Shown one piece after another: positions 18,001 to 21,000 of a stretch of DNA of 64,000 bases. Every line of letters begins with the position of its first letter. Position 1 is the first letter of the stretch. The stretch lies in assembly GCF_057098645.1 (NCBI RefSeq), contig NZ_CM169472.1; one strand, 5' to 3'. The position numbers were made by a program.

Positions 18001-21000
18001 CCCGTTCTGCCAGCTGGCGTTTGAGACGTGCAATCTCGGTAGACATCTCCAGTTCACGTTCAGAAGACGTCTGCTGATTTTGCTGTTTACTGCGCCAGTT
18101 GTAGAGCTGTGATTCATACAGGCTGAGTTCACGGGCTGCGGCAGTAACACCGATGCGTTCAGCAAGCTTCAGGGCTTCACTGCGAAATTCAGGCGAATGC
18201 TGTTTACGGGGTTTTTTACTGGTTGATACTGTTTTTGTCATGTGAGTCACCTCTGACTGAGAGTTTACTCACTTAGCCGCGTGTCCACTATTGCTGGGTA
18301 AGATCATCCCATCATGCCTGAATTAAAGAGGCATTTTTACTTTGATTCATTAACTGTACGAGAACTTCTCTGTTTTTTTCCGGATAAATAATGCGCGTAC
18401 CATAGATGACCACACCGGCATGAACAGGTAAAATAAAAAATGACATCAGTAATGCTGTTATTATTCTCACGTAATCACTCCGTAAATAATACCGGTAGCA
18501 GAGCTACCGGCAAAAAACGTTAATCTGCACTGATTTTAATCGTTACGGTTGACTCTACGGAGCCTTTTGTAACAGGATTGCCACTTGTGCGGGCATATTG
18601 TGCATTCAAATTAAGAAAATATTGACCAGAGCCATTATCTTTCAGCGGTGTTTTTAACCCTGGTCTCATTCTGGTCAAAGTCCCATCATCGAGGAAAATG
18701 GCAAAGCCAATGTTCTCAGCAGTTCCTTTATTCAGCGTAAAGTTATTAGCATCAAACTCTGATGCTAGTACTTCGATACTTGGGGCTGTATTTCCGTCAC
18801 ACTGAATTTCTAAGTCATGAGAGGTTGAACCGGTTTTTAAAGTATAGATTTCATTATTGATAAGTTGATTCATTGCACTGGTTACAACATCTTCGACAAC
18901 GATATCTGTTGTCGAATCACCATTAACAAAGTAACACGTTGTATCAACAACTTCTCCTCTAATGGTTAGTGTTCCTTGATCGACATCCTTGGCGAAGGTT
19001 GTTGCGCTAAACATCAACGTTGTCGCAACGAAGGGAATAATATACTTTTTCATAAATCATCCTTAATTAACTGGTATGGAAGGTCACTCGTTTTCAAACC
19101 CGATTATGTGATCAGGTTGTTATTATTTAGATTAATGTTTAAATTTTTTAATTTCTTGATGTGAAGTTGATGAAAGTTTGAAAATTTAATATTCTTAATT
19201 ATTCCCTTCTTTATAAGAAGAGCAAGGTGCCATCATTAGAGTGACAGAGTAGGATGTTTCAGAGCATGCTTCAGATTATTTTTTATTTCTCTGCAGTTAA
19301 TTAATAATTATCACAGGTAATTTCATTCTGAAATTACTTCTTTTTTGGGGTGTTTTAATCTTGATGAGATATTTTTTTCATAAGGAACATAGACTCGTTG
19401 ATGCTCTGAAGGTATTTTCTCATTTCTGGGGATGTTTTGTCGTAATCGTGCATAAACTTTTTCAGTTCTTTATACACATCATTATTTAGCTTTACATTGT
19501 CGCGAACTAAAGTTTGTACCAATGGTATCAAAATTTCGAAACGGGACGGTTTGTCATCAATACTTGCCAGGGTTTTGAATACTCCTGTGTATCTGTAACC
19601 TAAGTGCTTATTGACAAGTTGAGTGGTCCATCGGCCAGGCATAATATCTTCACAGCGCAAATTTTTTATCATGGTATTAGTGAACGATGTTCCAAATATG
19701 TTGCTTTTTTTAATGAAGAGGTTGTTTATTTCTCCATTTGAAAAGATGGTGTTTGATAAGTCGCTTTCAAAACATGATATATTGGATAATACACAACCAA
19801 AATAATACCCATATGAAAGGTTGCTCTTTTCTATTGTTATATTTGATAGCAACATTTTATGTATATTAATATTAAGGGCAGTCAAATACTGGATGTTTTG
19901 CTCGTTAAGTTCATGCATCTCCAGAGATTTATTATAGGGTAATAAAAGTATAAATTCCTTTACATTATCTCCGCAGTAAGAAAAGACAACATCAAATTTA
20001 TTGGTGATTGTGTTTTTAGTTGAGCAGTAAGCTGATTTTTCTATTAATCGACTGGGTATGCTTTTAAATAAAGATAATTTTTCACATAGTTGTGAATATG
20101 CAATATTGCTAGTTTTAAAATTCTGCCACATCATTCCCTGGTTATCATCTATCGATGAGGAGGGGATTTTATTGCATTGCTCATTGTATAGCTCAGGGAA
20201 AATATTTTTTTTAATTAGCTTTTTGATTTCCTGGTTAAGATGACTTTTTTTCTTGTCTATTGCACTATATTTAGCGTTTTGTGACGTCTCCTGATGATCA
20301 TAAAATGACTGGAGATTTCTGCAGGCCTCATAAAATATTTCAGGAGTATATAGCTGTGGGTATATTTCCTGGTTGAAGTTTGCCTTTAAAAACTTAACGA
20401 ATTTTTCATGGCATTCTTGATATGTCTTAATCTCTTCAGAAAGACATTCGCTTGTTCTGTCATCAAAAACATCCAATCTAAGTAATGTGATGCCTTTGTG
20501 TTTAAAAAAATAAAATTGAACTGTATGTTCTATGAGTTTACATCTATAAAAATGTGCATCTCTCAGATGAGTATATTGAAAAAAATGATGGAGGACTGGA
20601 GATGGTTTAGGCAAATCCTGGCTTCTGAAAAAGTCATCAAACAAAATTAAGAACTCTGTTTTATACTCGCAAAACACTTTTACTAACTCATTTTGTCTTG
20701 TTTTATTTATTATTACATCATCTACTATATTTGATTTATAAAGACAATGTGGCGAAGTTGAGATACCATTTGTCATTATCAGTCCTTGAAGTTGATGAAT
20801 TTTTATTAATTTAATTTATGAGTGAATGTGACTACTATCAAAAATCGCTCATTAATTTTAAGAAGTACAATATAAATAGGTATTTAACCTGTGTTGATTG
20901 CTGTTAATAATTTACAAGGTCTAATGAGGAGATATTTATGAATGGTTAAAGTATATAGGAATTTAATTCAAAAATAGAGTGGTCTTAAGTTTAATGCCTC

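Follow-up and report, generated by a model that had tools for sequence, protein, structure and literature searches.

The fimbrial operon described here raises the question whether a short RNA hairpin, located between the gene for the major pilin and the gene for the chaperone, could allow the pilin to be made in larger amounts than the proteins that assemble it. The operon lies on the minus strand of a 64,000-nucleotide stretch (in the following, the window) of contig NZ_CM169472.1 in the RefSeq assembly GCF_057098645.1 and, judged by its position and gene content, is the O-island 1 fimbrial cluster of Escherichia coli. The initial annotation of the window had pointed out a GC-rich inverted repeat at this junction and suggested that it works as an intra-operon attenuator and sets the stoichiometry of the subunits. 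It is textbook knowledge that chaperone-usher operons carry a terminator-like hairpin behind the gene for the major subunit. Such stem-loops have been described after fanC of K99, in K88, and after fimA of type 1 and mrkA of type 3 fimbriae, and were proposed to lower the transcription of the assembly genes. Our search of the literature found no citable statement on hairpins after fimA, mrkA or fanC, and no published description of the O-island 1 spacer hairpin.

The hairpin between the pilin and chaperone genes

Read along the minus strand, the junction runs ...GCAGAT-TAA-CGTTTTTTGCCGGTAGCTCTGCTACCGGTATTATTTACGGAGTGATTAC-GTG..., with the pilin stop codon, the spacer and the chaperone start codon following one another. 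The GC-rich inverted repeat was found where it had been placed, between the end of the major-subunit gene (18520) and the chaperone GTG (18470), and both gene coordinates were confirmed. In the RNA it forms a hairpin, UGCCGGUAGC-ucu-GCUACCGGUA (18490-18512, minus strand), which has 10 pairs including one G-U and a loop of 3 nucleotides (nt), and whose 5' edge lies 8 nt past the pilin stop codon on the operon strand. The core of this structure (18510-18492) is a perfect 8/3/8 palindrome with a G+C content of 6/8, built from the inverted repeat CCGGTAGC/GCTACCGG with arms at 18492-18499 and 18503-18510, 3 nt apart. One G-U pair and one U-A pair lengthen the 8-bp core to the full 10 pairs, and the stem energy is -12.6 kcal/mol for the core and -15.6 kcal/mol for the 10-bp stem. 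The stem is joined to the pilin stop codon by the linker CGUUUUU (18513-18519, minus strand), which together with U18512, the first base of the stem, adds up to six consecutive U. On its 3' side the stem continues directly into a U-rich tail, UUAUUUACGG (18480-18489, minus strand), with 5 U in its first 8 nt. The interval first annotated, 18485-18512, thus comprises the whole hairpin and the first 5 nt of this tail. Further downstream, the ribosome-binding site (RBS) of the chaperone gene, GGAG (18481-18478), is separated by 7 nt from the GTG start codon (18470-18468), so that the whole initiation region occupies 18468-18481 on the minus strand. RefSeq places the chaperone start at the same GTG in intact copies of the operon, which gives a pilin-chaperone gap of 49 nt. 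The four genes of the intact operon in E. coli strain 103 (NZ_CP020495) are separated by gaps of 49, 12 and 12 nt, and only the pilin-chaperone spacer is therefore long enough to hold an RNA element.

Folding of the minus-strand junction, the check proposed with the initial annotation, predicts a stable structure. The minimum free energy (MFE) of the 49-nt spacer is -18.1 kcal/mol, compared with -8.35 +/- 2.29 kcal/mol for dinucleotide shuffles (z -4.26), and none of 2000 shuffles was as stable. For the junction in a 76-nt context the z value weakened to -2.38 and 3/200 shuffles were equally good, because the coding flanks dilute the signal. The hairpin is real and beyond chance.

A terminator-pattern scan over the 9 kb from 12500 to 21500 gave the hairpin at 18490-18512 as its top match. 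It shares two properties with intrinsic terminators, namely a G+C-rich stem-loop (stem of about 5-14 bp, loop of 3-8 nt) and an orientation downstream of a gene end, with the U-tract on the transcribed strand. The U-tract of the tail UUAUUUAC is broken by an A. Its TransTermHP-style score is -3.92, whereas random tails of the same composition as the spacer have a median score of -2.11, with 12% at -3 or better. This tail passes a simple terminator scan but does not reach the strength of a canonical U-tract, which has about 7-9 nt. On the opposite strand an A-run takes the place of the U-tail, so that the U-tail is present in the operon direction only.

Conservation of the pairing among related operons

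The survey of related operons started from 80 loci encoding related chaperones, with one genome per species, in 78 of which a pilin gene was found directly upstream of the chaperone gene. After near-duplicates had been left out, 63 loci were analysed, from Citrobacter, Salmonella, Klebsiella, Serratia, Photorhabdus, Aeromonas and other genera. Of these 63 pilin-chaperone spacers, 61 contained a hairpin with an energy of -10 kcal/mol or better, which started at a median of 8 nt past the stop codon. The best 34-nt window of the spacers had a median MFE of -17.3 kcal/mol, compared with -7.1 kcal/mol for coding windows of the same length from the same loci (Mann-Whitney p 5e-35). Measured against shuffles, spacer folding gave a median z of -4.1, and for 53/62 spacers none of 60 shuffles folded as well.

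The sequences of the stems show no relationship from clade to clade, as illustrated by Salmonella arizonae (CCGGCAGUA/UACUGCCGG), operons of the yeh type (GGCCGCCAU/AUGGCGGCC), Enterobacter (CAGGCUCUGC/GCAGGGCCUG) and Photorhabdus (AAGCCUAUUU/AAAUAGGCUU). Covariation was assessed on a MAFFT alignment of the 26 closest spacers, which was anchored by the coding flanks and not fitted to the structure, and on which the full 10-pair helix was counted explicitly. Changes on both sides of a pair were found for 9/10 stem pairs, in 35 cells of the alignment. The covariation score was 0.389, compared with at most 0.149 when the 3' partners were slid by 1-3 columns, and 0/500 column shuffles reached 0.389. 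RNAalifold, applied to the raw MAFFT alignment, recovered the 6 inner pairs only, because MAFFT misaligns five sequences with short stems. The alignments clearly indicate a stem whose sequence turns over while its pairing stays.

The hairpin was somewhat more stable on the sense strand in 34 spacers and on the antisense strand in 19 (Wilcoxon p 5e-4), as expected from G-U pairs in an RNA and not from a DNA palindrome. U-rich tails with a score of -3 or better followed the stem in 32/62 relatives (52%) and in 12% of random tails, which is four times the random rate. The tail is canonical in Pseudescherichia vulneris, for example, and Citrobacter werkmanii and the stc operon of Salmonella arizonae have a hairpin with no U-tail.

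A separate observation concerns four loci (L006, L007, L018 and L036), in which contigs with fimbrial operons of E. coli or Citrobacter type are filed under metagenome-assembled genomes named Collinsella, Bacillota and Flavobacterium psychrophilum. The chaperones of L006 and L007 are 96-99% identical to the E. coli chaperone. These four contigs are most likely mis-binned enterobacterial DNA.

A proposed leaky terminator and the alternatives to it

We favour the reading that the hairpin is probably a leaky intrinsic terminator just past the major pilin gene, which also stabilises the pilin mRNA, and we hold it with limited confidence. RNA polymerase starting from the pilin promoter would first copy the G+C-rich stem-loop and next reach the interrupted U-tract UUAUUUAC, where part of the polymerases would release and thereby give a short, pilin-only mRNA. 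The hairpin at the 3' end of this mRNA would shield it against 3'-to-5' exonucleases, and the hairpin would form or protect the 3' end of the mRNA from the major pilin gene. Other polymerases would read through into the genes for the chaperone, the usher and the adhesin. As the outcome, the polymerising subunit would be made far above the catalytic assembly proteins, and partial termination and mRNA protection would lead to the same physiological result. This reading builds on the observed structure, position, strand, conservation and covariation of the hairpin; what we infer is termination, its efficiency and its effect on protein ratios.

Several points weigh against it. With an interrupted U-tract (5 U of 8) and a loop of just 3 nt, termination may be weak or absent. 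No U-rich tail (score above -2.5, no better than random) was found in 25/62 relatives, and what the family conserves is therefore the hairpin rather than a complete terminator. The statistics of the survey are inflated, since the related loci descend from common ancestors and do not count as independent. Finally, the operon is often a pseudogene cluster, which makes present-day selection on the hairpin in E. coli doubtful.

A possible explanation, of lower probability, is that the hairpin acts as a barrier to decay only, without any polymerase stop. RNase E would cut in the A/U-rich stretch 3' of the stem and the hairpin would block 3'-to-5' exonucleases, so that the pilin segment would outlive the chaperone-usher-adhesin segment; the outcome would be the same and would be reached at a different step. 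The 25 related spacers that keep a strong hairpin without a U-rich tail are consistent with such a barrier, as termination is unlikely there. The tail GGU|AUUAUUU of our hairpin also fits the RNase E motif RN|WUU (motif from PMC5927463), which is a motif of little information, and differential decay is documented for papBA, CFA/I and malEFG. The U-rich tails, however, point to termination in at least half of the cases, since they are found at 52% against 12% by chance and the tail in the window scores -3.9.

We consider it unlikely that the hairpin is a translation-sensing attenuator. The 5' arm starts about 8 nt past the pilin stop codon (8 nt is also the family median). At this distance, a ribosome that finishes the pilin reading frame while following RNA polymerase closely could sit on the base of the stem and so suppress termination. 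If this were true, transcription of the chaperone and usher genes would rise only with efficient pilin translation, and the supply of the machinery would be coupled to the supply of the subunit. In a variant of this reading, one hairpin would protect both products of an RNase E cut, namely the pilin mRNA at its 3' end and the assembly mRNA at its 5' end.

It is also improbable that the hairpin serves the downstream genes, either as a 5'-terminal stem-loop that would protect them against RNase E after a cut in the 5' U-run, or by tuning the translation of the chaperone. Between the end of the stem and the GGAG there are 8 nt, and in most relatives the stem ends 15-27 nt ahead of the start codon. 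Just 5' of the stem, the sequence GU|UUU fits the RNase E motif, and a protective 5' stem-loop is documented for papA in the account given in PMC5927463. The hairpins of the yeh type lie 21-23 nt from the start codon and 37-44 nt from the stop codon, which is compatible with both possibilities. In such a role, on the other hand, the excess of U-tails on the 3' side of the stem would have no function, and the centroid fold leaves the RBS unpaired, with no sign of RBS occlusion.

An element acting at the DNA level is very improbable. It could be the site of a dimeric regulator, in agreement with the perfect 8/3/8 palindrome of the core, or an internal chaperone promoter, TTGCCG-16-TATTAT (18513-18486), for which a 9/12 match of the promoter scan overlaps the hairpin. 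Among the relatives, however, pairing is kept and the stem sequence is not, which is the signature of a structure and not of a sequence-specific site, and folding is better on the sense than on the antisense strand. The internal promoter was rejected, because 9/12 matches are not enriched (22 found, 25.6 expected in shuffles) and the hexamers are not conserved in relatives, where the -10-like TATTAT is not retained.

That the hairpin is a chance palindrome, or a dispersed repeat without a role in the operon, is barely credible, for although chance alone would give about 6 perfect inverted repeats of 8 bp in 64 kb, the G+C-rich type is expected only 0.9 times per window, none of the 2000 spacer shuffles folded as well, and 61/63 related operons have a hairpin at the same position. 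Membership in the repetitive extragenic palindromic (REP) or bacterial interspersed mosaic element (BIME) families was rejected, with one copy in the window (at most 3 mismatches) and one site per genome in all 1204 E. coli genomes that carry the locus. A scan of 18000-19400 with Rfam 15 (E up to 10) gave chance-level matches only, the best being RF02902 with 17.8 bits against a gathering threshold of 39.8 (E 1.7).

The system most similar to a leaky terminator with a protective hairpin is pap of uropathogenic E. coli. As described in PMC5927463, an RNase-resistant terminator structure forms the end of the papA mRNA, whose level exceeds that of the rest of the operon, and papBA is processed and decays differentially (Baga et al. 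1988; Bricker & Belasco 1999). Both operons have a stem-loop directly after the major pilin gene and upstream of the assembly genes. In pap, the pilin gene takes second place and the mechanism includes a 5' stem-loop and cleavage by RNase E between papB and papA, whereas in the O-island 1 operon the pilin gene comes first. The pap case has been tested by experiment, and the O-island 1 hairpin has no sequence similarity to it.

Differential mRNA decay is also reported for the CFA/I fimbrial operon, as outlined in PMC5927463 and PMC4423207. By these accounts, the fimbrial subunit and its neighbours are likewise expressed unequally from one transcript through segment-specific mRNA stability, but CFA/I belongs to the alternative chaperone-usher class and has the chaperone gene first, followed by the subunit gene. 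Outside fimbriae, the intercistronic REP hairpin of malEFG is a case of selective RNA processing and stabilisation (SRPS) (Newbury et al. 1987; as treated in PMC4423207), and internal terminators set the stoichiometry of ABC transporters in Clostridia (PMC9045158). In cellulosome clusters, orthologous stem-loops are found at the same spacers in related species (PMC4423207). As in our reading of the O-island 1 operon, an intergenic stem-loop after the gene for the most-needed subunit sets the product ratio within one operon in malEFG and other SRPS systems. The mal hairpin is a dispersed REP repeat, whereas the O-island 1 hairpin is single copy, and the SRPS and Clostridia cases concern other organisms and other complexes.

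Seen in this company, the O-island 1 hairpin would be an ordinary instance of a known way to make pilin above the assembly proteins, and current understanding is unchanged. What is new, in a modest way, is the family survey, in which the hairpin is almost universal and the U-tract is found in about half. If a leaky, protective terminator is indeed present, it would explain how a minimal four-gene operon gives thousands of pilins per fibre together with catalytic amounts of chaperone and usher from one promoter, and the device would be one that the Yeh/Stc-like fimbriae of many enterobacterial genera retain despite turnover of its sequence. The hairpins with and without U-tracts form a natural series that bears on the selected function, either termination or mRNA protection. 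The hairpin could be annotated, and its deliberate retention or removal is advisable when such operons are cloned for expression.

The operon, its neighbourhood and its decay in E. coli

All genes of the operon are on the minus strand, in the order pilin (PF00419), hairpin, chaperone (PF00345/PF02753), usher (PF13954/PF00577/PF13953) and a last gene. The major fimbrial subunit of 177 amino acids (aa; Pfam Fimbrial, PF00419) is encoded at 18520-19053, with its TAA stop codon at 18522-18520. The chaperone gene is in two parts. Its 5' part of 168 nt (18303-18470, PapD_N) is truncated by an insertion sequence (IS) of the IS3 family (17049-18302, minus strand; orfA at 17942-18250, orfB at 17079-17945), and its 3' part (16533-17048) encodes the end of PapD_N and PapD_C. 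The IS element, which is not found in intact copies of the operon, has a length of 1254 bp and is inserted after nucleotide 168 of the chaperone gene. In a BLAST comparison with an intact operon the two flanks abut exactly (at 7898/7899 of locus L002). The usher gene (14070-16520) is split into two open reading frames, at 15873-16520 (PapC_N) and at 14070-15776 (Usher and PapC_C), and has one indel relative to strain 103. The last gene (13098-14057) encodes a product of 319 aa with a signal peptide, which is a putative tip adhesin by position only. This product had no Pfam match and no sequence match in the PDB even at E 10.

With the chaperone gene interrupted and the usher gene split, no fimbriae can be assembled in this strain. 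The proposal of an intra-operon element that favours the pilin gains from the position and strand of the hairpin, from its placement in the sole sizeable spacer and from its covarying conservation, but the proposed role in stoichiometry does not hold for the window, where the IS element and the split usher break the operon and the hairpin cannot set any ratio. Here the hairpin would be a relic, which at most still ends the pilin transcript.

O-island 1 of strain EDL933 has a fimbrial cluster, z0020-z0025, and a motility repressor 'FmrA' (z0021) has been placed inside it (PMC10877973). Outside E. coli, the closest relatives of the chaperone are about 62% identical and are Citrobacter proteins and Salmonella StcB. 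The operon therefore groups with the gamma-4 Yeh/Stc fimbriae, a group described in PMC12778044. In the same paper, the tryptophan W142 is highlighted in YhlD of the Yeh-like pilus 'Yhl'. An identity of our operon with 'Yhl' was not confirmed, as the product of the last gene has no tryptophan outside its signal peptide and no PDB match.

The locus was found in 1204/5426 complete E. coli genomes, always as a single copy and always on the chromosome. The spacer, in which the hairpin is unannotated in RefSeq, is identical in 945 of the 1204 genomes, and the remaining 259 differ at one position. The common variant maps to the stretch separating the RBS from the start codon. Among the E. coli copies that were fetched, a stem base is altered only in strain E54 (C-to-A, in the pair adjoining the loop; locus L004). 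As the spacer is nearly invariant, variation within E. coli is uninformative on selection. Usher pseudogenes are also annotated, independently, in other strains, with an internal stop in O145 RM9872 and in D9 and a frameshift in E54, while the usher gene is intact in strain 103. Decay of the usher gene is recurrent, and in E. coli the hairpin is best seen as an inherited part of an operon in decay in several lineages. In E. coli EC2 (NZ_CP058571, locus L005), an IS1 at 1592-2364 is located at the pilin-chaperone junction, just downstream of the hairpin and at the start of the chaperone gene. It parts the chaperone gene from the pilin gene and from the pilin promoter.

The operon is flanked by nhaR on one side and by espX1 and rpsT on the other. 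The espX1 gene (19355-20776, minus strand), which encodes a type III effector of the pentapeptide-repeat type, is upstream of the pilin gene on the same strand, with a spacer of 300 nt to the pilin start. At the other end of the operon, a second hairpin, CTCCCCCA-(9 nt)-TGGGGGAG (13068-13092), fills the 37 nt that separate the stop of the last fimbrial gene (13098) from that of the convergent nhaR (13060). It has no clear U-tract on the fimbrial strand and is probably a shared or bidirectional end-of-transcript structure. Across the whole window, the search for G+C-rich perfect 8-bp hairpins gave 8 hits (about 7 sites), compared with the 0.9 expected in shuffles. Apart from the spacer hairpin, these are located at 3993-4016, 4689-4708, 10166-10185, 50277-50298, 54342-54361 and 60204-60226, and they are probably terminators of other genes.

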